NCBI GenBank assembly: GCA_031291325.1
Contig: JARLJG010000034.1
Location: forward strand, 3,141-67,140
Length of the DNA: 64,000 bases
Origin: Burkholderiaceae bacterium
Lineage (GTDB): Bacteria > Pseudomonadota > Gammaproteobacteria > Burkholderiales > Burkholderiaceae_D
Direction: 5' to 3'
This document shows, piece by piece, positions 3,024 through 18,448 of the stretch. The position numbers were made by a program, and so were the translations under genes. How positions within the stretch are numbered: position 1 is the stretch's first letter; each line of letters opens with the position of its first letter. Below the pieces are notes generated by a model, which was not told where the DNA came from, did not search any database, and was given only the letters and a program-made list of their open reading frames with translations.

Positions 3024-4118
3024 TCAGGCGACTTCCTTGCTTTCCTTCGGTTCCTTGGCGGATTTTTTCGCCGCAACCGGTTCAGCAGTCGGAAGCGGCG
3101 CCAATTCCGGCACGCCGAGCGATACCCGCACCTTGTTCTCGATCTCGCGCGCCAATTCGGGACGCTCTTTCAGGTAATTGCGTGCATTGTCCTTGCCTTG
3201 CCCGATGCGCTCGCCGTTGTAGCTATACCAAGCGCCGGATTTTTCGACAATTTTCGCTTCCGCGCCAAGGTCGAGGATTTCGCCTTCGCGCGATGTGCCT
3301 TCGCCATACAAGATATCGAAATGCGCTTCCTTGAACGGCGGCGCAATCTTGTTCTTGACGACTTTGACCTTGGTTTCGTTGCCGATCACTTCCTCGCCCG
3401 ACTTGATCGATCCGGTGCGACGGATATCCAGGCGCACCGACGCGTAGAATTTCAACGCATTGCCGCCGGTCGTCGTCTCCGGGTTGCCGAACATCACACC
3501 GATCTTCATGCGGATCTGGTTGATGAAAATCACCAGTGTGTTGGTGCGATTGATCGAGCCAGTCAGTTTGCGCAGCGCCTGCGACATCAGCCGCGCCTGC
3601 AAGCCCGGCAAGGAGTCGCCCATGTCGCCTTCGATTTCCGCGCGCGGCGTCAATGCAGCAACCGAATCGACCACGATCAAGTCGACCGCGCCGGAACGCA
3701 CCAGCGCGTCGGTAATTTCCAACGCCTGCTCGCCGGTATCCGGTTGCGAAATCAGCAAGTCCGACAAATTGATGCCCAACTTTTGCGCATAGCCGACGTC
3801 GAGTGCATGTTCGGCATCGATAAACGCGCAGGTGCCGCCCAATTTCTGCATTTCAGCAATGGTTTGCAGGGTCAAGGTCGTCTTGCCCGACGATTCCGGC
3901 CCGTAAATTTCGACCACGCGGCCACGCGGCAAGCCGCCCACGCCCAATGCAATATCGAGTCCCAGCGAGCCGGTCGAGACGACTTGCACCTCTTCGACTA
4001 CCGCGCCGTCTTCCATGCGCATCACCGAACCCTTGCCGAATTGCTTCTCGATCTGCGCCAGCGCGGCAGCCAGTGCTTTGCTCTTGTCGGAGCTTGGTGC
4101 GTTTCTCTTGTCGTCCAT
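3024..4118 (-). CDS. recA: Recombinase RecA
   Basis: The ORF reads [35 protein letters not shown]... with Walker [10 protein letters not shown]. The track start at 4163 was trimmed to the ATG at 4118, which gives the canonical N-terminus. Confidence 0.97.
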
Positions 4119-4185
4119 GAGGATTCTTTCAACGGTTGGGTACAAAACAGCTTTGATACACAATTGGATTTAACTGCACAGCACA

Positions 4186-4205
4186 TACTGTATAAAAAAA
4201 CAGTG
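4186..4205 (-). promoter_or_regulatory. LexA SOS box (TACTGTATAAAAAAACAGTG) upstream of recA
   Basis: A perfect CTGT-N8-ACAG palindrome at 4188-4203, 70-85 nt upstream of the recA ATG. This is the beta/gammaproteobacterial LexA consensus. Confidence 0.8.
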
Positions 4206-4432
4206 CTTTATGCAAGCGATGGATGCATATTTGATCGATATTTTTATGGTTATCTATTTAATCATACAAAAGCAGCGACCCGCGATAGCTTTCAGTCAAA
4301 CGCAATTGGTATCAGCACGTCGCTCATTTGCAACTATAAGCAACTATTACCACAGCATTCATTGATTGTGCTTGCGAACATCGAACTTGCGATTTACGAT
4401 GACCATACTCGCCAATGCCCAAGGAGCGCACA

Positions 4433-7400
4433 ATGTCTTCTTTGCCGTCGTATTTTGCCAAAAAGAGCTTGGAGAAAATCCAGGCCAAGCTGCCGATAAA
4501 TCATCAAAAGTTGGCGCGGCAACTAGTCGATATGATCGAGCCAAGCGGGCAAATCGGCGCGGGTGCGCTGCGCGACGCGCTATTCCCGATGGCGACCGAC
4601 AAGAGCGGCAACGAAATGTTGCGGCGGCTGCTCAATAGCATCAATGAGGCGGCCAAGGCACTCGGCATGGATTTCAGTGCCGAAATCACGGCAGACAAAA
4701 AAGCCGGTGCCGACCGCATGGTGTGGTTTGAAGGCGTAGCTGAATTGGTCAATCGCCCCCATACCAGCGAATTGAATCGCATTCCCGAAGAAATGCGCGT
4801 TGTCAGCCAGCGCGGATTTTTGCTCGATAAAACGGTCGTGTTGATGACCTTCAACAAGCATGAAACCCAAGCGGTGTTCGATGTGTTTAGCGGCGGCAGC
4901 GTGCCACCATTTGAACGTCGCGGCAGCTACACGTATAACCGGCTGGGCGTGCATGGCGATCTTGAAGTCCTGCACGTGGTAAGCGCGCAAGGAAACCTGG
5001 AATCGCTAGCCACTGCCCAGGCAGCAGTCGATGCATGGCACCCGTGCGCGATTATCCCGGTGGGGGTCGCTTTCGGTATCGACTCCAAGAGCCAAAGCCT
5101 GGGCGATGTGCTGGCGGCGGAATACTTGCGCGACTACGAAATGGTTCGAGTCAATGCAGACGACACCGTAACCCCGAGAGGAAACCGTCCGCGCGCCAGC
5201 GACCTGCTAATAAACGAGATTCGGCACCTGGATCATCGCCATCAGCAAAAAGTCGACTGGCCTAAAATTCACTTGGGTACCGTCTTGTGCGGCAATAAGC
5301 TGGTGGATAACCGACCGTTCCGCGACGATTTGCTAAAAATCGAACCGGAAGCGATCGGCGGCGAGATGGAAGGAATCGGCGTCGAATCCGTCGCCCGCCG
5401 CGAAAAAATCGACTGGATTCTGGTCAAGGGCATCTGCGATTGGGCCGATGGCGGTAAAACGACCGACACCAAGGCGCGCGATCAGCAAACCGCTGCACAT
5501 AATGCGGCGCAGGTGGTCAAGGCGCTATTGGCGGAACCGTCGCTGTTTCCGCCTGACAAACCGCATTTTTCCGATCCGGTTCCGGCGCAGCCTGCCTCCC
5601 AGTCTGCTTTGTCCAATACGCCGCCCAGTGTGCGCCGCATGGGGATGCGCGACTGCGACAAGCTTTCATCGCACTTGTTTGTCCCGGATGCGCCCGGCGC
5701 GTCGACGCGGCTTAGTGACAGCAAAGAGCCGTCCGCCGAATCCAAAAAAATGGAAAATGCCGCCAGCGTGCCGGTGCTGACCCATCTGAAAGAATGGATC
5801 GCCGATCCCGCTGCGCCGCCGCTGTTTGCGCTTTTAGCCGAATACGGCATGGGAAAAACCATCACTAGCCAGCAACTGGCGCTGAAACTCGACGAAGCGC
5901 ACAAGCACGAACCGTCGCAGCCGATTCCGCTTTACTTCGACTTGCGCCATCTGACCCAACTCGACAAACGCGTGCCGACGTTGAGCGAGACATTGAAAGA
6001 ATGCATGGCGCGCGGCTGGCAAGACGACGGCAGCAACGCCGATTACTCGATGGAAGACGTGCATCGCTGGATAGCGCAAAAGGCGGTGGTGATTTTCGAT
6101 GGCTTGGATGAAGTGCTGGTGAAGCTGACCGAGAGGGACGGCATCACGTTTACCAATAATCTGTTGAAACTGATGTTCGATGCCGGGCAGCTCGCCAAAA
6201 CCGCAGGCAGGCCGCTGCAAGTGAAGGTCCTGCTGACTTGCCGCACCCAGTATTTTCCGACGCTGCAAGCGCAAAACAATTATTTCACCCAAAGCGAGCG
6301 CGGCGAATTTGCGCCGGAAAAATACCGCGCAATGGTCTTGCTGCCCTGGGGAGAAGAGCAAGTCGAACGCTATCTGGGAAGCGCGCTGCCGGAGATGGAC
6401 ATTGCCGCCGTGTTGGACATGGTCAAGGCCGTGCATAACCTGGAAGAATTGACGCATCGCCCCTATACGCTCAGGCTGATTTCCGAATTCATCCCCGAAA
6501 TCGAGCGCGACCGCGCCGCAGGGCGAGCCGTCTACGGCGTCACGCTGTACCGCAACATGGCCAATAAATGGCTGGCGCGCGACACCGGCAAGCATGTTAT
6601 CCGGTCGTATCACAAACTGAAGCTGGCATCGCATTTGGCCGCCCACATTTGGCAAACCAAGCGCAGCGCGTTAAGCGTCGAAGACTTGAACAACTGGTTT
6701 CATCAATGGCGCGACAGCGAGCCGGAATTACAGAAGCTTTACGCAGACGTGAATTCCGAACAACTGGAAGAAGATTTGCGCACCGCTACCTTCCTTTGCC
6801 GGGTCGACGATGCGGATGGCAGCGCATTCCGCTTCTCTCACACGTCGCTGCTGGAATTTTTTCTGGCGAGTTACCTGTTTCAGGCGATGCAAGATAATCG
6901 ACCTGAACGCTGGGCCATGCGGGTGCCCAGCAGTGAAACCCTGGATTTCCTTGGACAAATGCTCGCCGAAGCGAATAGGCCTGCACTATTGCAAACGCTG
7001 CAAGCGTGGCGTAAAAATTACCGGGCGCAGGCTAGCGAACTGTTGCTGGCTTATGCGCTGCAAGCGTTGAAAGACGGCTGGCCTGCGCCGATCTTGCATG
7101 GCATCGACTTGAGCGGCGCAAACTTGCGCGGCTGGGAAATGCTAGGGAGCGCCGACGCCCCGCTGGAACTGGGGCCGGCCAATTTCACTGGCGCCGATCT
7201 GCGCGACGCGCTTTTTACGCATGTCCGACTTGCGGGGGCGTGCTTCGATACCGCGCGGATGGACTCCGCCAACTTGCTCGATTGCGATGCAAGGCAAGCC
7301 AGTTTCGACGGCGCGGAGTTGACTGCATGTATTTTCCGCAAGTGCAAGCTGGATGGCAGCAGGTGGAATAATGCGCGTGGTTACCGGACGCAATGGCTGT

Positions 7401-8692
7401 TATGCGATCCCGCCCAGGAAACCTGGGCTGATGGCCCGGTTCAACAGGCTGGCTTGTTGCATGCGTTGCTTCCCCGCCTTGGGGAGAACTTTAAAACATC
7501 GAAAAACCTGGCTTGGCTGAATGGTCATCAGGACATTGTGACGTCGTGCGCGTGGTCACCGGACGGCCGCATGCTGGCGTCGACCGGTGTTGACGGCACG
7601 GTCAGTCTGTGGGACGGCGCGAGCGGCGAAGCGTTGCGCACGCTCTCCGGTCATGAGGCCTCGGTAACGTCGTGCGCTTGGTCGCCGGACGGCCACATGC
7701 TGGCGTCGGCCGGAAGTGACGGCACGGTCAGGCTGTGGGACGGCGCGAGCGGCGAAGCGTTGCGCACGCTCTCCGGTCATCAGGACTGGGTAACGTCGTG
7801 CGCGTGGTCGCCGGACGGCCGCATGCTGGCGTCGTCCGGGAGTGACGGCACGGTCAGGCTGTGGGACGGCGCGAGCGGCGAAGCATTGCGCACGCTCTCC
7901 TGTCATGGGAACTCGGTAATGTCGTGCGCGTGGTCGCCGGACGGCCGCATGCTGGCGTCGTCCGCGCATGACGGCACGGTCAGGCTGTGGGACGGCGCGA
8001 GTGGTGAAGCTTTGCGCACGCTCTCCGGTCATGGGGCCTGGGTAACGTCGTGCGCGTGGTCGCCGGACAGCCTCATGCTGGCGTCGACCGCGCATGACGG
8101 CACGGTCAGGCTGCGGGACGGCGCGAGCGGCAAAGCATTGCGCACGCTCTCCGGTCATCAGGCCTCGGTAAGGTCGTGCGCGTGGTCGCCGGACGGCCGC
8201 ATGCTGGCGTCGTCCGGGGATGACGGCAGGGTCAGGCTGTGGGACGGCGCGAGCGGCGAAGCATTGCGCACACTCTCCGGTCATGAGGGCCCGGTAAGGT
8301 CGTGCGCGTGGTCGCCGGACGGCCGCATGCTGGCGTCGACTGGGCATGACGGCAGGGTCAGGCTGTGGGACGGCGCGAGCGGCGAAGCGTTGCGCACGCT
8401 CTCCGGTCATGAGGACTGGGTAACGTCGTGCGCGTGGTCGCCAGACGGTCGTATGCTGGCGTCGACCGGGGATGACGGCACGCTCAGGCTTTGGGACAGC
8501 GCAAGCGGCGAAGCGTTGCGCATTTGCGCGCTTTGTCAAAGTCGAACCGGCGATTTGGCTGGCTACGCAGTCTGGACTCCGCAAAACAACAAGATCGTGG
8601 AATTGTCCGGCGATGCCTGGCGCTATCTAGCGTGGCAGGGAATAGATGCAGATGGCCGCATCACGCGCCTGCCGCTGGAGATTTTCAGCTAG
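4433..8692 (+). CDS. STAND/NLR-like protein: unknown N-terminal region, MTAN/PNP-type nucleosidase-like domain, NACHT-type P-loop NTPase, pentapeptide repeats and 8x WD40. Candidate antiphage NLR.
   Basis: One uninterrupted frame, with RBS AAGGAG (4421-4426) 6 nt before the ATG at 4433. The track start at 4415 is in the same frame. Motifs:
- GGEMEG (5357-5374) and VKGICDWAD (5423-5449), resembling the MTA/SAH nucleosidase catalytic motifs.
- Walker A AEYGMGKT (5837-5860) and Walker B VVIFDGLDE (6086-6112).
- Pentapeptide-like run DLSGANLRG...ANFTGADLRDALFTHVRLAGACFDTARMDSANLLDCDARQASFDGAELTACIFRKCKLDGSRW (7097-7366).
- Eight 42-aa WD40 units (7523-8530). Confidence 0.85.
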   Translation: MSSLPSYFAKKSLEKIQAKLPINHQKLARQLVDMIEPSGQIGAGALRDALFPMATDKSGNEMLRRLLNSINEAAKALGMDFSAEITADKKAGADRMVWFEGVAELVNRPHTSELNRIPEEMRVVSQRGFLLDKTVVLMTFNKHETQAVFDVFSGGSVPPFERRGSYTYNRLGVHGDLEVLHVVSAQGNLESLATAQAAVDAWHPCAIIPVGVAFGIDSKSQSLGDVLAAEYLRDYEMVRVNADDTVTPRGNRPRASDLLINEIRHLDHRHQQKVDWPKIHLGTVLCGNKLVDNRPFRDDLLKIEPEAIGGEMEGIGVESVARREKIDWILVKGICDWADGGKTTDTKARDQQTAAHNAAQVVKALLAEPSLFPPDKPHFSDPVPAQPASQSALSNTPPSVRRMGMRDCDKLSSHLFVPDAPGASTRLSDSKEPSAESKKMENAASVPVLTHLKEWIADPAAPPLFALLAEYGMGKTITSQQLALKLDEAHKHEPSQPIPLYFDLRHLTQLDKRVPTLSETLKECMARGWQDDGSNADYSMEDVHRWIAQKAVVIFDGLDEVLVKLTERDGITFTNNLLKLMFDAGQLAKTAGRPLQVKVLLTCRTQYFPTLQAQNNYFTQSERGEFAPEKYRAMVLLPWGEEQVERYLGSALPEMDIAAVLDMVKAVHNLEELTHRPYTLRLISEFIPEIERDRAAGRAVYGVTLYRNMANKWLARDTGKHVIRSYHKLKLASHLAAHIWQTKRSALSVEDLNNWFHQWRDSEPELQKLYADVNSEQLEEDLRTATFLCRVDDADGSAFRFSHTSLLEFFLASYLFQAMQDNRPERWAMRVPSSETLDFLGQMLAEANRPALLQTLQAWRKNYRAQASELLLAYALQALKDGWPAPILHGIDLSGANLRGWEMLGSADAPLELGPANFTGADLRDALFTHVRLAGACFDTARMDSANLLDCDARQASFDGAELTACIFRKCKLDGSRWNNARGYRTQWLLCDPAQETWADGPVQQAGLLHALLPRLGENFKTSKNLAWLNGHQDIVTSCAWSPDGRMLASTGVDGTVSLWDGASGEALRTLSGHEASVTSCAWSPDGHMLASAGSDGTVRLWDGASGEALRTLSGHQDWVTSCAWSPDGRMLASSGSDGTVRLWDGASGEALRTLSCHGNSVMSCAWSPDGRMLASSAHDGTVRLWDGASGEALRTLSGHGAWVTSCAWSPDSLMLASTAHDGTVRLRDGASGKALRTLSGHQASVRSCAWSPDGRMLASSGDDGRVRLWDGASGEALRTLSGHEGPVRSCAWSPDGRMLASTGHDGRVRLWDGASGEALRTLSGHEDWVTSCAWSPDGRMLASTGDDGTLRLWDSASGEALRICALCQSRTGDLAGYAVWTPQNNKIVELSGDAWRYLAWQGIDADGRITRLPLEIFS
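7523..8530 (+). repeat. Eight tandem, in-frame 126-bp repeats encoding near-identical WD40 blades
   Basis: Units start at 7523, 7649, 7775, 7901, 8027, 8153, 8279 and 8405. Each encodes GHxxxVxSCAWSPDGRMLASxxxDGTVRLWDGASGEALRTLS. Units 2 and 3 differ at 8 of 126 nt by manual alignment. Confidence 0.95.
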
Positions 8693-8801
8693 ATTTTGGG
8701 TGAAATACGTCAAAATATTGCTAAAAAGCGCGATGCAAATAGCATGCGCCTTCCATGTTGTAAGCTAAGTCAAAGTCTCGCAGAGTAAAATGAACCTCAT
8801 T

Positions 8802-8851
8802 GCGCCGCAACAACCAGTCATTCCAAGCGAATGACTGGTTGCGTTGCTGCG
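8802..8851 (+). terminator. Strong hairpin downstream of the NLR gene (possible terminator or operator)
   Basis: Perfect 12-bp stem caaccagtcatt (8811-8822) / aatgactggttg (8830-8841) with a 7-nt loop. Flanking bases extend the pairing. There is no clear U-tract, so the function is uncertain. Confidence 0.35.
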
Positions 8852-8879
8852 CCAATACCTTGATTTCAATAGATATCCC

Positions 8880-9623
8880 ATGCTGATTGCCATATTGAGT
8901 GACTTGCACGCCAATCGGGAAGCGTCCGCCGCCTGCCTGGATCACGCCGCCGCGCAGGGTGCCGAGCTGTATGCGTTTCTCGGCGACCTGGTCGGCTACG
9001 GCGCCGACCCAGCCTGGACGGTCGACACGGTCATGGGGTATGCGCAACGCGGCGCCCTGGTGGTGTACGGCAATCACGACCAGGCGGTCGCCCGGCAAGC
9101 CGGTGCGCAGATGAACGCGGTGGCAAGGCAAGCGGTGGAATGGACGCGCGCGCAACTGAGCGCCGAGCAACTTGCGTTTCTCGCCGGCCTGCCGCTGACT
9201 GTGGAGCGCGACGATTGCCTGTTCGTGCACGCCAGCGCCGCCCAACCCGAGCAATGGGAATACGTGACCGACACGCAAGACGCGGTGCGAAGCATGTATG
9301 CGACGCGTTGCCGGATTACCTTTTGCGGCCATGTGCACGGCCCGGCGCTGTATCACATGTCGCCGACCGGGAAGGTCGCGGCCTTTGCGCCGGCGGTCGG
9401 CTATGGCATTCCGCTCGGCCCGCAGCGCCGCTGGCTGGCGATTCCCGGTTCGGTCGGGCAGCCGCGCGACGGCAATCCTGCCGCCGGCTACGCGCTGTAC
9501 GACCAGTACGTGGGGGAGTTGACTTATCACCGCGTGCCCTACGATCACGAAAGCGCGGCCAAGAAAATTCTTGCGGCCGGATTGCCGCCCCGCTTCGCCT
9601 CGCGGCTGGCGCTCGGCGTGTAG
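8880..9623 (+). CDS. Metallophosphoesterase family protein (PPP-type Ser/Thr phosphatase-like)
   Basis: MLIAILSDLHAN...FLGDLVGYG...VYGNHD...FCGHVHG are classic calcineurin-like metallophosphoesterase motifs. The ATG at 8880 was chosen inside track ORF 8844-9623. Confidence 0.8.
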   Translation: MLIAILSDLHANREASAACLDHAAAQGAELYAFLGDLVGYGADPAWTVDTVMGYAQRGALVVYGNHDQAVARQAGAQMNAVARQAVEWTRAQLSAEQLAFLAGLPLTVERDDCLFVHASAAQPEQWEYVTDTQDAVRSMYATRCRITFCGHVHGPALYHMSPTGKVAAFAPAVGYGIPLGPQRRWLAIPGSVGQPRDGNPAAGYALYDQYVGELTYHRVPYDHESAAKKILAAGLPPRFASRLALGV

Positions 9624-9625
9624 CG

Positions 9626-11074
9626 ATGCCGACCACCTTGCGGCCCGAGCCGGGCATGATTATCGACGGCTTCCGTCTTGAAGAACAGTTGCACCAGGGC
9701 GGGATGGCGCTGCTGTGGCGTGTCACGCGCGTCGAGGACAACCAGGACGACAGGAACGAAAGCGGTGCCGCGCTGCCGTTGATGATGAAGATTCCGTTCC
9801 TCGGCGACAACGACGATCCGACTGCCATCGTCGGCTTTGAAGTCGAGCAAATGATCATGCCCAGGTTGAGCGGCCCGCATGTGCCGCTGTTCGTCGCGGC
9901 GGGCGACTTCACCAGCAATCCGTATATCGTGATGGAGCAAATCGCCGGTAATTCGCTGCGCGCCCGCTTCGACGCCGCGCCGCTGGCGGCGAACGAAGTG
10001 GTGGCGATCGGCGCCAAGATTGCCACGGCGCTGCACGATTTGCATCGGCAACAGGTGATACACCTCGACCTCAAACCGAGTAACGTGATGTTCCGCGAAA
10101 ATGGCGAGGCCGTATTGATCGACTTCGGCCTGTCGCGCCACGACAAGCTGCCGGACTTGCTGGCCGAGGAATTCCGCCTGCCGATCGGCACCGCACCGTA
10201 TATTTCGCCGGAACAGGTTCTGCATATCCGCAACGACCCGCGCAGCGACTTGTTTGCGCTGGGTGCGCTGCTTTACCACCTGTGCACCGGCCAGCGCGCG
10301 CATGGCAATCCGAGCTCGGTGCGCGGCTTGCGGCGCCGCCTGTACCGCGATCCCATTCCACCGCGCGCGCACAATCCGCAAATCATGCCCTGGCTGCAGG
10401 AAATCATCCTGCGCTGCCTGGAAGTCGACCCGGCGCGACGCTATGACAGCGCCGCGCAGCTTGCCTTCAACCTGAATCACCCGGAACAAGTGGCGTTGAC
10501 CGAGCGCGCCCTGAAGACCCGCAGCGACCGCTGGCACTGGCTGCTCAAGCGCTGGTTCGACGCCTCCAGCTTCCAGCCGGTCCCGCATCAATCGGCTGGC
10601 CGGCAATTGTCGAAATCGCCCATCGTGGTGGTGGCGATCAATCTGGCGAAAGGGTCGCTGGCGCTCGACGAGGCGCTGCGCACCACCGCGCGGCGCATCC
10701 TGCTCACCGAGCCAGGCGCGCGCCTGGCTTGCGTAACGGTGCAAAAAACCAACCGCATCGGCATGGATGTGTTGACCGACCAGGAAGGGCAAAACCTGCA
10801 CGTCAAGCACCTGGTGGAACTCAAGCATTGGGCCAGGCCATTGCAACTCGCGGGCGACCGCACCACCTTTCACGTGCTGGAAGCGCCCGATCCGGCTGCC
10901 GCCATCGTCGACTATGCGCGCAGCAACGATGTCGACCACATCGTCATCGGCTCGCGCGGCACTTCGATGCTGCGCCGCTACCTGGGCAGCGTGTCGTCGC
11001 AGGTGGTGGCGCAAGCCGATTGCAGCGTGACGGTCGTCAAGTCGCCGCGCGCCGCGCAGGAGCGGAGGAATTGA
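9626..11074 (+). CDS. Ser/Thr protein kinase fused to a C-terminal universal stress protein (USP) domain
   Basis: The ATG at 9626 is 2 nt after the phosphoesterase stop. Hanks kinase motifs are present: HLDLKPSNVMF, IDFGLS, TAPYISPEQ. The C-terminus (VVVAINL...HIVIGSRGTSMLRRYLGSVSSQVVAQADCSVTVVK) is USP-like. Confidence 0.85.
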   Translation: MPTTLRPEPGMIIDGFRLEEQLHQGGMALLWRVTRVEDNQDDRNESGAALPLMMKIPFLGDNDDPTAIVGFEVEQMIMPRLSGPHVPLFVAAGDFTSNPYIVMEQIAGNSLRARFDAAPLAANEVVAIGAKIATALHDLHRQQVIHLDLKPSNVMFRENGEAVLIDFGLSRHDKLPDLLAEEFRLPIGTAPYISPEQVLHIRNDPRSDLFALGALLYHLCTGQRAHGNPSSVRGLRRRLYRDPIPPRAHNPQIMPWLQEIILRCLEVDPARRYDSAAQLAFNLNHPEQVALTERALKTRSDRWHWLLKRWFDASSFQPVPHQSAGRQLSKSPIVVVAINLAKGSLALDEALRTTARRILLTEPGARLACVTVQKTNRIGMDVLTDQEGQNLHVKHLVELKHWARPLQLAGDRTTFHVLEAPDPAAAIVDYARSNDVDHIVIGSRGTSMLRRYLGSVSSQVVAQADCSVTVVKSPRAAQERRN

Positions 11075-11222: not shown

Positions 11223-11331
11223 TTGAGCGTAATTTTGAAAAAATACCTGGGAAATACCACGCATGGGTATTCATGCCGTCGATTCTCCCGTAAAGTGGCA
11301 ATATCACTTAATCAGCTTCCCTAAACCGATC

Positions 11332-12033
11332 ATGCGTATTTTGCTTGCCGAAGACGACAGCGTGTTGGCCGACGGCCTGACACGGTCCTTGCGCCAATCC
11401 GGCTACGTGACCGATTGCGTGGGCAGCGGCACCGAGGCCGATACCGCGTTGGCGACCCAGGATTTCGATTTGCTCATTCTCGACCTGGGGCTGCCGAAAA
11501 TGTCCGGCCTGGAAGTCTTGCGGCGCTTGCGCTCGCGCAATTCGCGCGTGCCGGTGTTGATCCTGACGGCGGTCGATTCGGTCGAACAGCGCGTCAAGGG
11601 GCTGGACCTGGGCGCCGACGATTACATGGCCAAGCCGTTTGCGTTGTCCGAACTGGAGGCGCGCGTGCGCGCGCTGACGCGGCGCGGCGCCGGCGGCGGG
11701 CCGACGGTCATCAAGCATGGCCCGCTGTGTTACGATCAAGTGGGGCGCATCGCCACCATCAACGATCAAATGCTGGATTTATCCGCGCGCGAACTGGGCT
11801 TGCTGGAAATTTTGCTGCAACGCACCGGACGCCTGGTCTCGAAAGAGCAGCTGGTAGACCATCTGTGCGAATGGGGCGACGAAGTCAGCAACAATGCGAT
11901 CGAAGTGTATATTCACCGGCTGCGCAAGAAGATCGAAATCGGCGGCATCCGCATCGCCACCGTGCGCGGGCTTGGATATTGTCTTGAGAAAATTCCCGAC
12001 GCGCCCGGCGCCAATGCGCCGGGCACCAGCTAG
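11332..12033 (+). CDS. OmpR/PhoB-family response regulator
   Basis: MRILLAEDDSVLADGL...DLLILDLGLPKMSG...ADDYMAKPF (receiver domain) plus a winged-helix C-terminus (...IEVYIHRLRKKI...TVRGLGY). ATG at 11332 within track ORF 11263-12033. Confidence 0.92.
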   Translation: MRILLAEDDSVLADGLTRSLRQSGYVTDCVGSGTEADTALATQDFDLLILDLGLPKMSGLEVLRRLRSRNSRVPVLILTAVDSVEQRVKGLDLGADDYMAKPFALSELEARVRALTRRGAGGGPTVIKHGPLCYDQVGRIATINDQMLDLSARELGLLEILLQRTGRLVSKEQLVDHLCEWGDEVSNNAIEVYIHRLRKKIEIGGIRIATVRGLGYCLEKIPDAPGANAPGTS

Positions 12034-16058: not shown

Positions 16059-17474
16059 ATGCCGAAATTCTTTGACGAAATGTATGCCGACGAAACCGGC
16101 ACGGTTCGCAAGCACTACCGCGAATTCGAGGCTTGGCTGGCGGAACAACCGCCCGACACGATCGCCCACAAACGCGCCGAAGCGGACCTGATCTTCCGCC
16201 GCGTCGGCATCACCTTCGCGGTGTACGGCAACGATGCCGGCACCGAGCGATTGATACCGTTCGACATCATCCCGCGCATCATCACTGCCGACGAGTGGAG
16301 CAAGCTCGAAGCCGGCCTGGTGCAGCGCGTCAAGACGTTGAACATGTTCATCCACGATATTTATCACGAGCAGAAAATCGTCAAGGCGGGCGTGATTCCG
16401 CCGGAGCAGATTTTCCAGAATGCGCAATATCGACCCGAGATGCAGGGGGTTTCGGTCAGTTCCGACATCTATGCGCACATTGCCGGGGTCGATATCGTGC
16501 GCGCCGGCGCCGGCGAATTCTACGTGCTGGAAGACAATCTGCGCGTGCCTTCCGGCGTGTCGTACATGCTGGAAAACCGCAAGATGATGATGCGGCTGTT
16601 TCCCGAATTGTTCGCACGCCACAAGGTCGCGCCGGTCGCGCACTACCCGGACATGCTGCTCGACAACCTGCGCTCGGTGGCGCCGACCGGCGTGACCGAC
16701 CCGACTGTAGTCGTGATGACGCCAGGCATGTATAACTCGGCCTACTTCGAGCATGCCTTCCTGGCGCAGCAGATGGGCGTGGAACTGGTCGAGGGCCAGG
16801 ATTTATTCGTCGACAACGACGTGGTCTACATGCGCACCACGCGCGGCCCGAAACGGGTGGACGTGATTTACCGCCGCATCGACGACGACTACCTCGATCC
16901 GTTGGCATTCCGCGCCGACTCGTCGCTGGGCGTGCCGGGACTGCTGGCAGCCTATCGCGCCGGCCGCGTCACCTTGACCAATGCGATCGGCACCGGCGTC
17001 GCCGACGACAAGTCGATTTATCCATTCGTGCCGGACATGGTGAAATTTTACCTGTCCGAGGAACCGATCTTGAATAACGTGCCGACCTACCAATGCCGGA
17101 AAAAGGCCGACCTGGCCTACACGCTCGACCATTTGCCGGAACTGGTGGTCAAGGAAGTGCATGGCGCCGGCGGTTACGGGATGCTGGTCGGCCCGGCTTC
17201 CAGCAAGGCCGAGATCGAAGATTTCCGCCAGCGCCTGCTGGCCAAGCCGGAAGGTTATATCGCGCAGCCGACGCTGGCGCTATCGGCCTGCCCGACCTTT
17301 GTCGAATCCGGCGTGGCCCCGCGCCATATCGATTTCCGCCCGTTTGTGCTGTCCGGCAAGAATGTTTCGATGGTGCCCGGCGGCTTGACCCGGGTGGCCT
17401 TGGCCGAAGGCTCGCTGGTGGTCAATTCGTCGCAAGGCGGTGGCACTAAAGACACCTGGATTTTGGAGAAATGA
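16059..17474 (+). CDS. Circularly permuted type-2 ATP-grasp protein (DUF404/DUF407)
   Basis: 471-aa ORF MPKFFDEMYADETGTVRKHYREFEAWL...; recognisable as this family and followed by an alpha-E gene with a 4-nt overlap. Confidence 0.85.
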   Translation: MPKFFDEMYADETGTVRKHYREFEAWLAEQPPDTIAHKRAEADLIFRRVGITFAVYGNDAGTERLIPFDIIPRIITADEWSKLEAGLVQRVKTLNMFIHDIYHEQKIVKAGVIPPEQIFQNAQYRPEMQGVSVSSDIYAHIAGVDIVRAGAGEFYVLEDNLRVPSGVSYMLENRKMMMRLFPELFARHKVAPVAHYPDMLLDNLRSVAPTGVTDPTVVVMTPGMYNSAYFEHAFLAQQMGVELVEGQDLFVDNDVVYMRTTRGPKRVDVIYRRIDDDYLDPLAFRADSSLGVPGLLAAYRAGRVTLTNAIGTGVADDKSIYPFVPDMVKFYLSEEPILNNVPTYQCRKKADLAYTLDHLPELVVKEVHGAGGYGMLVGPASSKAEIEDFRQRLLAKPEGYIAQPTLALSACPTFVESGVAPRHIDFRPFVLSGKNVSMVPGGLTRVALAEGSLVVNSSQGGGTKDTWILEK

Positions 17475-18448
17475 TGCTGAGTCGAACTGCCGACCATTTG
17501 TTCTGGATGGCGCGCTACACGGAGCGCGCCGAAAATACCGCCCGCATGCTCGACGTCAATGTGCAAACCTCGCTGCTGCCGCAATCGGCCGAAGCGAACG
17601 AACGCGGTTGGCGCGCCATGCTCGGCATTTCCGAGCTGCAAAGCCGCTTCGACGAGAAATACGATGTGCTGACCGCCAGGGACGTGATCGATTTCATGGT
17701 GCGCGAGCCGAGCAATCCCTCCTCGATCGCCTCTTGCCTGCACGCAGCGCGGGAAAACGCGCGCGCGGTGCGCGGCACGCTGACCACGGAAGTGTGGGAA
17801 ACCCAGAACGCGACCTGGCTGGAAGTCAAGGACAGGTTGCGCGACAATCGTCTGGAACAAGACCCGAGCCAATTCTTCGAGTGGGTCAAATACCGCTCGC
17901 ACCTGTCGCGCGGCGTCACCATCGGCACCATGCTCAAGGACGAAGCGCTGTATTTCATCCGTCTCGGCACGTTTCTCGAACGCGCCGACAATACGGCGCG
18001 CCTGTTGGACGTGAAATTCCACAATGCCGAACACTTGGGCAAGGCAGAACAACGGCAGCGCCAAAGCAGCGATCCCGAGCCGCAAAACGATTTCTATTAT
18101 TGGGCGGCGATATTGCGCTCGGTGTCGGGATTCGAGGTCTATCGCAAGGTCTATCGCGACCTCATCACGCCGGCGCGCGTGGCCGAGTTCCTGATCTTGC
18201 GCGGCGACATGCCGCGCTCCCTGCTGGCCTGCATGGATGAAGTGATCACTACCCTGGGCGAAGTCGGCAACCAGGCGTCAGCCGATACCGAGCGCTTCGC
18301 CGGAAAATTGCATGCCGAGCTGCGTTTCAATCGCATCGACGACATCTTGCAGCAAGGCTTGCACGATTACCTGACCAAGTTCCTGGAACGCGTCTACGAA
18401 CTGGGCAATCGGGTCAGCAAGGATTTTCTGGTGCCGCTGGCCGGATAG
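17471..18448 (+). CDS. Alpha-E domain protein (DUF403)
   Basis: MLSRTADHLFWMARYTERAENTARMLDV... is the characteristic alpha-E N-terminus. The gene is translationally coupled to the ATP-grasp gene. Confidence 0.85.
   Translation: MMLSRTADHLFWMARYTERAENTARMLDVNVQTSLLPQSAEANERGWRAMLGISELQSRFDEKYDVLTARDVIDFMVREPSNPSSIASCLHAARENARAVRGTLTTEVWETQNATWLEVKDRLRDNRLEQDPSQFFEWVKYRSHLSRGVTIGTMLKDEALYFIRLGTFLERADNTARLLDVKFHNAEHLGKAEQRQRQSSDPEPQNDFYYWAAILRSVSGFEVYRKVYRDLITPARVAEFLILRGDMPRSLLACMDEVITTLGEVGNQASADTERFAGKLHAELRFNRIDDILQQGLHDYLTKFLERVYELGNRVSKDFLVPLAG

Follow-up and report, generated by a model that had tools for sequence, protein, structure and literature searches.

Within a 64,000-nucleotide stretch of DNA from a Burkholderiaceae bacterium (contig JARLJG010000034.1, positions 3,141 to 67,140; hereafter the window), a gene on the plus strand at 4433..8692, stop codon included, encoded a 1,419-amino acid NOD-like receptor (NLR) type protein with the domain order NNH6-PNP-NACHT-pentapeptide-WD40. 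The product is probably a stand-alone conflict sensor of the NACHT STAND type, in which an N-terminal nucleosidase effector would deplete (d)ATP and thereby abort infection. This functional reading, proposed in a first-pass annotation of the same DNA, was found to be reasonable and to agree with predictions already in print. The enclosing open reading frame (ORF) ran from 4415 to 8692 on the plus strand, and its probable start was the ATG at 4433, which was preceded by a Shine-Dalgarno-like AAGGAG (4420..4425, plus strand, direct sequence reading) 7 nt 5' of it. The N-termini of relatives started at the Met equivalent to this ATG, and the product translated from it was 100% identical, and equal in length, to a protein of a Burkholderiaceae metagenome-assembled genome (MAG) at NCBI (P0001), labelled there merely as a 'pentapeptide repeat-containing protein'. 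The single frame of 1,419 codons with a good ribosome-binding site described by the first-pass annotation was therefore upheld, and the GGEMEG, VKGICDWAD, GMGKT and VVIFDGLDE motifs that it had read were each present in the translation at the positions assigned to them. Residues are numbered here from ATG 4433; the numbers of that annotation were higher by 6, and E311, E313, D336 and K475 correspond to its E317, E319, D342 and K481.

The PNP/MTAN-fold nucleosidase domain, MTAN being 5'-methylthioadenosine/S-adenosylhomocysteine (MTA/SAH) nucleosidase, occupied positions 4829..5533 of the plus strand (aa ~133-367), as delimited by Pfam, Foldseek and alignment. Pfam PNP_UDP_1 matched aa 175-367 (E = 3.7e-12). 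The AlphaFold2 (AF2) model of aa 1-385, built on an alignment of 55 relatives, had a mean predicted local distance difference test score (pLDDT) of 92.7, and its best 50 matches in the PDB were all MTA/SAH nucleosidases or futalosine hydrolase (Foldseek, E ~1e-19), with target-normalised template modelling (TM) scores of 0.81-0.87 to MTAN structures over ~240 aligned columns. The predicted catalytic residues were E144 (nt 4862-4864), E311-M312-E313 (nt 5363-5371) and D336 (nt 5438-5440), of which the central triplet belonged to GGEMEG (nt 5357-5374, G309-G314) and the Asp to VKGICDWAD (nt 5423-5449, V331-D339); E144, E313 and D336 were invariant in 55 of the 55 relatives. These three residues aligned with E12, E174 and D197 of MtnN, whose sequence had been entered by hand, and an independent alignment with Staphylococcus aureus MTAN from the PDB gave the matching motif correspondence by pairing GGEMEG with AVEMEA and ICDWADG with VSDLANG. 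D336 also aligned with D353 of DtcC, the catalytic Asp mutated as D353A, and corresponded to D472 of Cap17 by motif only, because the compared Cap17 sequence ended before that residue. The parallels to the E-M-E and SDxAD motifs of MTA/SAH nucleosidases put forward in the first-pass annotation were borne out in this way, and profile and structure searches agreed on an MTAN fold with intact catalytic residues. As predicted by the model, the fold and the active site of the domain can be regarded as established.

Reference PNP domains were compared with the domain by phmmer, with sequences from Table S8 of Rousset et al. (10.1101/2023.01.24.525353) and the D472A and D353A substitutions defined from the primers. 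The score was 70 bits (E = 5e-23) for sponge DDAN, a demonstrated ATP nucleosidase, 16 bits for fungal NLRN, 9 bits for Escherichia coli MtnN (sequence entered by hand), 8 bits for a partial Cap17 sequence covering the N-terminal part of its PNP domain, and 3 bits for DtcC. Judged by these alignments, the closest tested enzyme is sponge DDAN. At the level of the domain, PADLOC profiles matched the PNP region as DtcC-like PDC-M60C (1.5e-10) and as a CBASS 'PN-superfamily' effector (1.6e-7), and an NCBIfam MTAN profile matched it at 6e-12 (45.5 bits, against an equivalog cut-off of 169). Because the MTAN and the DtcC/Cap17 profiles scored alike, ATP specificity rests on the similarity to DDAN and on published clade lists. 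Rousset et al. (10.1101/2023.01.24.525353) described the Cap17-type PNP domain at the N-terminus of NLRs from fungi and corals and of many bacterial Avs and NLR-like proteins, and in their assays Cap17, DtcC, sponge DDAN and the PNP domain of a fungal NLR proved to be ATP nucleosidases. Their Cap17 PNP clade (Table S4) included 'NLR-like' genes of Burkholderiales JOSHI_001, Cellvibrio, Thiorhodococcus and Accumulibacter, and full-length relatives of the present protein (P0070, P0039, P0056) occurred in genomes or genera of that list, the IMG gene IDs of which were unmatched to sequences. Membership of the domain in the immune (Cap17-clade) group of ATP nucleosidases is likely on sequence grounds, with the comparable MTAN profile match as a limit on it.

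The NACHT module, with NTPase, helical and winged-helix parts, extended over 5795..7075 of the plus strand (aa ~455-881; Pfam, AF2 and Foldseek). Pfam NACHT matched aa ~470-610 with 29.1 bits, a narrow margin over the gathering cut-off of 26.7 (E = 1e-6), and a PF05729 hit was precomputed for most relatives. The Walker A motif GEYGMGKT (K475) fitted GxxxxGK[ST], its G, M, G, K and T being invariant in 52 aligned sequences, and in the Walker B motif VVIFDGLDE (D556-E560) the D-G-L-D-E was invariant in the same 52. This DGLDE conformed to the NACHT-specific Walker B signature D[GAS]hDE (Kibby et al., 10.1101/2022.07.19.500537). The AF2 model of aa 420-1010 had a pLDDT of 90.6 and a predicted TM score of 0.90. 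NACHT NLRs (NLRP9, NLRC4, NAIP, NOD2, NLRP3 and NLRP1) took Foldseek ranks 1-29 for that model, and Avs4 (rank 30), ORC/Cdc6 and Apaf-1 ranked below them. A P-loop NTPase with NACHT-like motif spacing had been read from the sequence; the profile score, the DGLDE and the NLR fold matches sustained it as a NACHT-type member of the STAND class. Architecture suggests that the module belongs to clade 11 of the NACHT classification of Kibby et al.

The C-terminal part of the protein carried eight tandem 42-aa WD40 repeats (7523..8530, plus strand; Pfam WD40 E = 3e-107 in 8 stretches), and Tandem Repeats Finder (TRF) resolved 7523-8522 into 7.9 copies of a 126-bp unit (90% matches). The eight blades of the first-pass annotation accordingly stood for the present assembly. 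The 126-bp units were 83-94% identical to one another in DNA, and variation within the repeats clustered at repeat positions 3-5, 7 and 21-23. By analogy with the general WD40 structure, these variable positions would lie in the top-face loops of the propeller. Most full-length relatives were 1,640-1,720 aa long, which corresponds by length to ~14 WD40 repeats. The presence of 8 rather than ~14 repeats may reflect true variation in repeat number, or the short-read MAG assembly may have collapsed the array, which is possible because the units are 83-94% identical in DNA. The array had a GC content of 64-69%, compared with 51-58% towards the 5' end of the gene. A conserved C-terminal tail of ~50 aa followed the repeats (8531..8689, plus strand, aa 1367-1419; family consensus and relatives' sequences). 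Its motif, GYAVWxP...GDAWRYLxW...RLPLExFG, was kept throughout the family, including members with diverged repeats, and the tail may close the propeller or be a separate small module.

The entire architecture was shared by ~85 proteins with 33-65% identity, from beta-, gamma- and alphaproteobacteria, Polyangiaceae and one actinobacterium, the hosts being mostly unicellular proteobacteria; their phyletic distribution was sporadic. An exhaustive search with aa 1-385 gave 831 cluster representatives at E<=1e-30, and among the 150 matches listed of these 831, over half covered NNH6 plus PNP. One relative, a partial protein of 1,023 aa from a Candidatus Contendobacter MAG (P0085), had the order NNH6-TIR-NACHT-pentapeptide-WD40. 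Outside the family, the nearest PNP domains were fused to SIR2, TIR, NB-ARC/TPR, restriction-type helicases, Nudix and effector-associated domains (EADs), which are the fusion partners expected of an interchangeable effector, and the sequences suggest that the PNP domain is one. Plasmid carriage was considered and rejected: tblastn against PLSDB plasmids returned only isolated matches to the PNP domain or to fragments of NACHT, and no site covered at least 80% of the query, that is, no full-length copy was present on these plasmids.

The N-terminal region, of which the first-pass annotation had recognised nothing in the first ~130 aa, matched NNH6 (NACHT N-terminal helical domain 6; Pfam PF22737, E = 4.1e-25) at 4448..4780 of the plus strand (aa 6-116) and is therefore a named NACHT-associated helical domain. 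It was predicted by AF2 as four helices plus a beta-hairpin, with block-mean pLDDT of 92-98 over aa 1-100. The motif DKKxGxxxRxVWF (window 4697-4717, aa 89-95) fell on the predicted beta-hairpin; across the 55 relatives R95 was invariant and K89 and G92 were nearly so. In the Foldseek search with the aa 1-385 model, the PNP domain dominated the output and no structural match for NNH6 was obtained. NNH6 looks like a constant module beside varying effectors, and not a part of the effector, because P0085 has TIR in place of PNP yet retains NNH6.

A Pro/Ser-rich linker (5534..5794, plus strand, aa ~368-454), delimited from the translation and from low model confidence, joined the PNP domain to NACHT; the pLDDT dropped past aa ~370 and was low in parts of aa ~430-450 (AF2). 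Between NACHT and the propeller lay a pentapeptide-repeat beta-helix of about 4.5 coils and ~100 aa (7097..7402, plus strand, aa ~889-990). Pfam Pentapeptide (E = 8.8e-13) and Pentapeptide_4 matched aa ~915-980, and the AF2 model of aa 420-1010 showed a regular helix, with strands spaced ~20 residues apart and a pLDDT of 97-98, in agreement with the pentapeptide stretch that had been read from 7097 onwards. Foldseek matches of this region were Rfr and solenoid proteins, and the family consensus was conserved chiefly at alternating hydrophobic (A/L/F) positions. Most simply, the beta-helix is a rigid spacer from the winged-helix region of NACHT to the propeller. Pentapeptide proteins are known as DNA mimics, and it is conceivable, if quite improbable, that the helix is a built-in bait that mimics DNA, as Qnr and MfpA do, and detects phage DNA-binding proteins, while the variable WD40 surface contributes a second specificity. 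If true, the bait helix would be a bacterial counterpart of the 'integrated decoy' NLRs of plants.

The gene lay between blocks of housekeeping genes. On the upstream side the window contained sucC, a DUF2889 gene, recX and recA. Downstream were a calcineurin-like metallophosphoesterase (8880-9623; Pfam Metallophos_2, 5.9e-17) and then a Ser/Thr kinase-Usp gene at about 9626-11074. ORF 9140-11074 was over-extended, and the actual start of the kinase-Usp gene is probably the ATG at 9626. The metallophosphoesterase/kinase pair was kept in 80 Oxalobacteraceae/Burkholderiales species (62-77% identity), with no NLR or recA within 10 kb of the pair in those 80 species. In each of four relatives on long contigs the neighbours were wholly different, with neither conserved partner genes nor a conserved adjacent messenger-responsive effector gene, and there was likewise no conserved non-defence context across these relatives, which the first-pass annotation had named as a finding that would count against it. 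With housekeeping flanks and varying neighbours, the NLR thus stands alone as an accessory gene set between blocks of housekeeping function. A 'mini defence island' formed with the downstream kinase was a candidate raised by a PADLOC PD-T4-6 match to ORF 9140-11074 (1.4e-54), and it was rejected; given the over-extended ORF and the conservation of the pair in 80 species without the NLR, the match is therefore attributed to generic kinase similarity.

Proteins of similar composition have been catalogued. In Table S1 of Kibby et al. (10.1101/2022.07.19.500537), NACHT clade 11 listed Cellvibrio mixtus WP_094984934.1 as NNH6+PNPase+NACHT+WD40/beta-propeller, and the same table gave NNH6+PNPase+NACHT+WD40 for Propionibacterium EPH05514.1 and NNH6+NACHT+Pentapeptide+beta-propeller for Frankia. 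Nearly every clade 10/11 entry was NACHT+Pentapeptide+beta-propeller, with TIR, caspase, REase, SIR2 or calcineurin-like N-terminal effectors (10.1101/2022.07.19.500537). The view that the pentapeptide module and the unrecognised N-terminus fall outside the standard make-up of the bNACHT types described so far consequently had to be abandoned, both being catalogued, and the combination NNH6+PNPase+NACHT+WD40 being listed in clade 11. The ordered NNH6, PNP, NACHT and WD40 modules were common to the clade entries and the present protein; however, both listed NNH6+PNPase entries lacked a pentapeptide annotation, whereas the repeat was detected here and in most relatives, and the present protein had 8 WD40 repeats instead of about 14.

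The immune PNP nucleosidases and the present protein had in common the PNP/MTAN fold, an N-terminal Glu, the E-M-E and the catalytic Asp, and the 'NLR-like' members of that group likewise carry the PNP domain at the N-terminus of a STAND sensor. The other components of Detocs (DtcA kinase plus DtcB buffer) or type III CBASS (a CD-NTase with a SAVED/TPALS-linked effector) were absent among the neighbours here, and, in contrast to the Cap17 and DtcC systems, activation would go through the fused NACHT module. Fungal PNP_UDP-NACHT-WD40 NLRs had a similar effector/NACHT/WD40 layout, to which the bacterial protein adds NNH6 and the pentapeptide beta-helix, and the repeats of fungal NACHT-WD genes are highly conserved internally with few variable positions (Dyrka et al. 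2014, PMC4986451). Inter-repeat identity in fungal NWD/HET-E is ~85% with few variable positions, compared with 83-94% in DNA here and variation at the positions given above; nevertheless, HET-D/E-like NACHTs belong to clade 18 of Kibby et al. (10.1101/2022.07.19.500537), not to clade 11. What the first-pass annotation had stated of Cap17, DtcC and fungal PNP_UDP NLRs agreed with Rousset et al. and Dyrka et al. Avs (AVAST) proteins resembled the present one in being tripartite single chains with an N-terminal effector, a STAND NTPase and a C-terminal repeat sensor, but the present NTPase was of the NACHT type, with NACHT NLRs outranking Avs4 in Foldseek, and the sensor was WD40 rather than TPR-like.

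In the mechanism proposed, the protein would rest as an autoinhibited monomer. The variable surface of the WD40 propeller would bind a specific ligand, for which a phage protein is the likeliest candidate, and autoinhibition would be released. Ligand binding would allow the NACHT module to exchange its nucleotide and to oligomerise, and oligomerisation would cluster the N-terminal PNP/MTAN-fold domains into an active assembly that cleaves (d)ATP. The collapse of cellular (d)ATP would then arrest or kill the infected cell, and the infection would be aborted. Housekeeping MTAN and PNP enzymes act as dimers or higher oligomers, and activation driven by proximity is plausible for this reason.

Several observations weigh against an infection sensor that depletes (d)ATP. 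PADLOC gave no match of the whole protein to a defence model, Avs included, and its matches were limited to HEAT-ARM_XIII over the WD40 region and to PDC-M60C and the CBASS PN effector over the PNP region. The gene was situated outside a defence island, between recX-recA and the conserved metallophosphoesterase/kinase pair. No report of a tested bacterial NNH6-PNP-NACHT-WD40 protein was found in the open-access literature, and the tested bNACHTs in the first of the three parts of Table S2 of Kibby et al. were proteins of 609-1,050 aa from enterobacteria and Vibrio. The similarity of the PNP domain to the housekeeping MTAN profile was of the same order as its similarity to the DtcC and Cap17 profiles, its pairwise similarity to these two tested ATP nucleosidases was very weak (phmmer), and for conflict 'PNPase' domains Kibby et al. 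and the Aravind group predicted NAD+ or nucleotide-derivative chemistry rather than ATP cleavage, the Aravind group also considering base release that yields a nucleotide-derived messenger. The same three points favour an alternative in which the NLR switch is as proposed and the chemistry is another one: NAD+, AMP, ADP-ribose or MTA/SAH would be the substrate, or base release would produce a messenger, and ATP would not be depleted. This alternative is rather unlikely, as all immune-clade PNPs assayed so far (Cap17, DtcC, NLRN and DDAN) cleaved ATP or dATP, the PNP domain was far closer to DDAN than to MtnN (70 and 9 bits, respectively), and the four relatives offered no conserved neighbour through which a messenger could act.

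A conflict or cell-death sensor that is not primarily anti-phage, and that would respond to non-self or kin, or to another biotic or endogenous signal, as in fungal HET-E/NWD allorecognition, is unlikely. It would agree with the conservation pattern of the WD40 repeats, which is that of fungal NWD/HET genes, with the location outside a defence island, and with the enrichment of related systems reported in multicellular or social bacteria. Nonetheless, the bacterial NACHT and Avs proteins with known triggers all sense phage proteins or perturbations induced by phage, PNP domains of the immune clade show a statistical association with anti-phage systems, and the relatives were found mostly in unicellular hosts. 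A housekeeping or regulatory protein, that is, a regulated MTA/SAH nucleosidase or a signalling scaffold that takes no part in conflict, is hardly credible. The chromosomal site among housekeeping genes and the best PDB matches, which were housekeeping MTANs, would suit it; against it stood the sporadic distribution and the neighbours that were never conserved in the four relatives, the absence of the NLR near the conserved flanking pair in 80 related species, the TIR swapped in for PNP in P0085, a NACHT plus repeat-sensor architecture typical of immune receptors, and a score far under the MTAN equivalog cut-off. A NACHT sensor that would abort infection through (d)ATP depletion was the best-supported reading.

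An Rfam search of the window gave no matches, and a scan of 4100-9300 gave no sigma-70-like promoter and a lone weak terminator-like hairpin at 8674-8689. A near-consensus LexA/SOS box, TACTGTATAAAAAAACAGTG (window 4186-4205, with CTGT-N8-ACAG at 4188-4203), was situated immediately before recA on its upstream side (3024-4163, minus strand), in the divergent intergenic region of ~270 nt that recA shares with the NLR gene. Its sequence and position indicate that the box most likely regulates recA. Other neighbours were a response regulator of the OmpR type, which matched the PADLOC profiles PDC-M60B/C weakly through its generic receiver domain, and a histidine kinase resembling QseC. Positions 203-399 of the PADLOC profile PDC-M60C (PDLC04726) matched the PNP domain of the NLR at window 4979-5533, and positions 1-61 matched the receiver of the nearby response regulator at window 11263-12033, the latter being a generic receiver match. 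The candidate system PDC-M60 looks like Detocs, because the profile combines a receiver with PNP, as in DtcC. A gene pair at 16059-18448, encoding a circularly permuted ATP-grasp protein (CP_ATPgrasp_1/2) and an Alpha-E protein, had no apparent link to the NLR.

The architecture and the predicted role of this protein are already catalogued in two published surveys, and no new principle is involved. The gene is a full-length, motif-intact example of the computationally catalogued NNH6-PNP-NACHT-pentapeptide-WD40 group. Two of its parts are shared with eukaryotic immunity, namely a PNP effector of the ATP-nucleosidase type and a NACHT-WD40 receptor whose repeats are hypervariable in the fungal manner. 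Its functional study would therefore be informative on the depletion of ATP by bacterial NACHTs, on the ligands of WD40 propellers, and on the roles of NNH6 and the pentapeptide helix.

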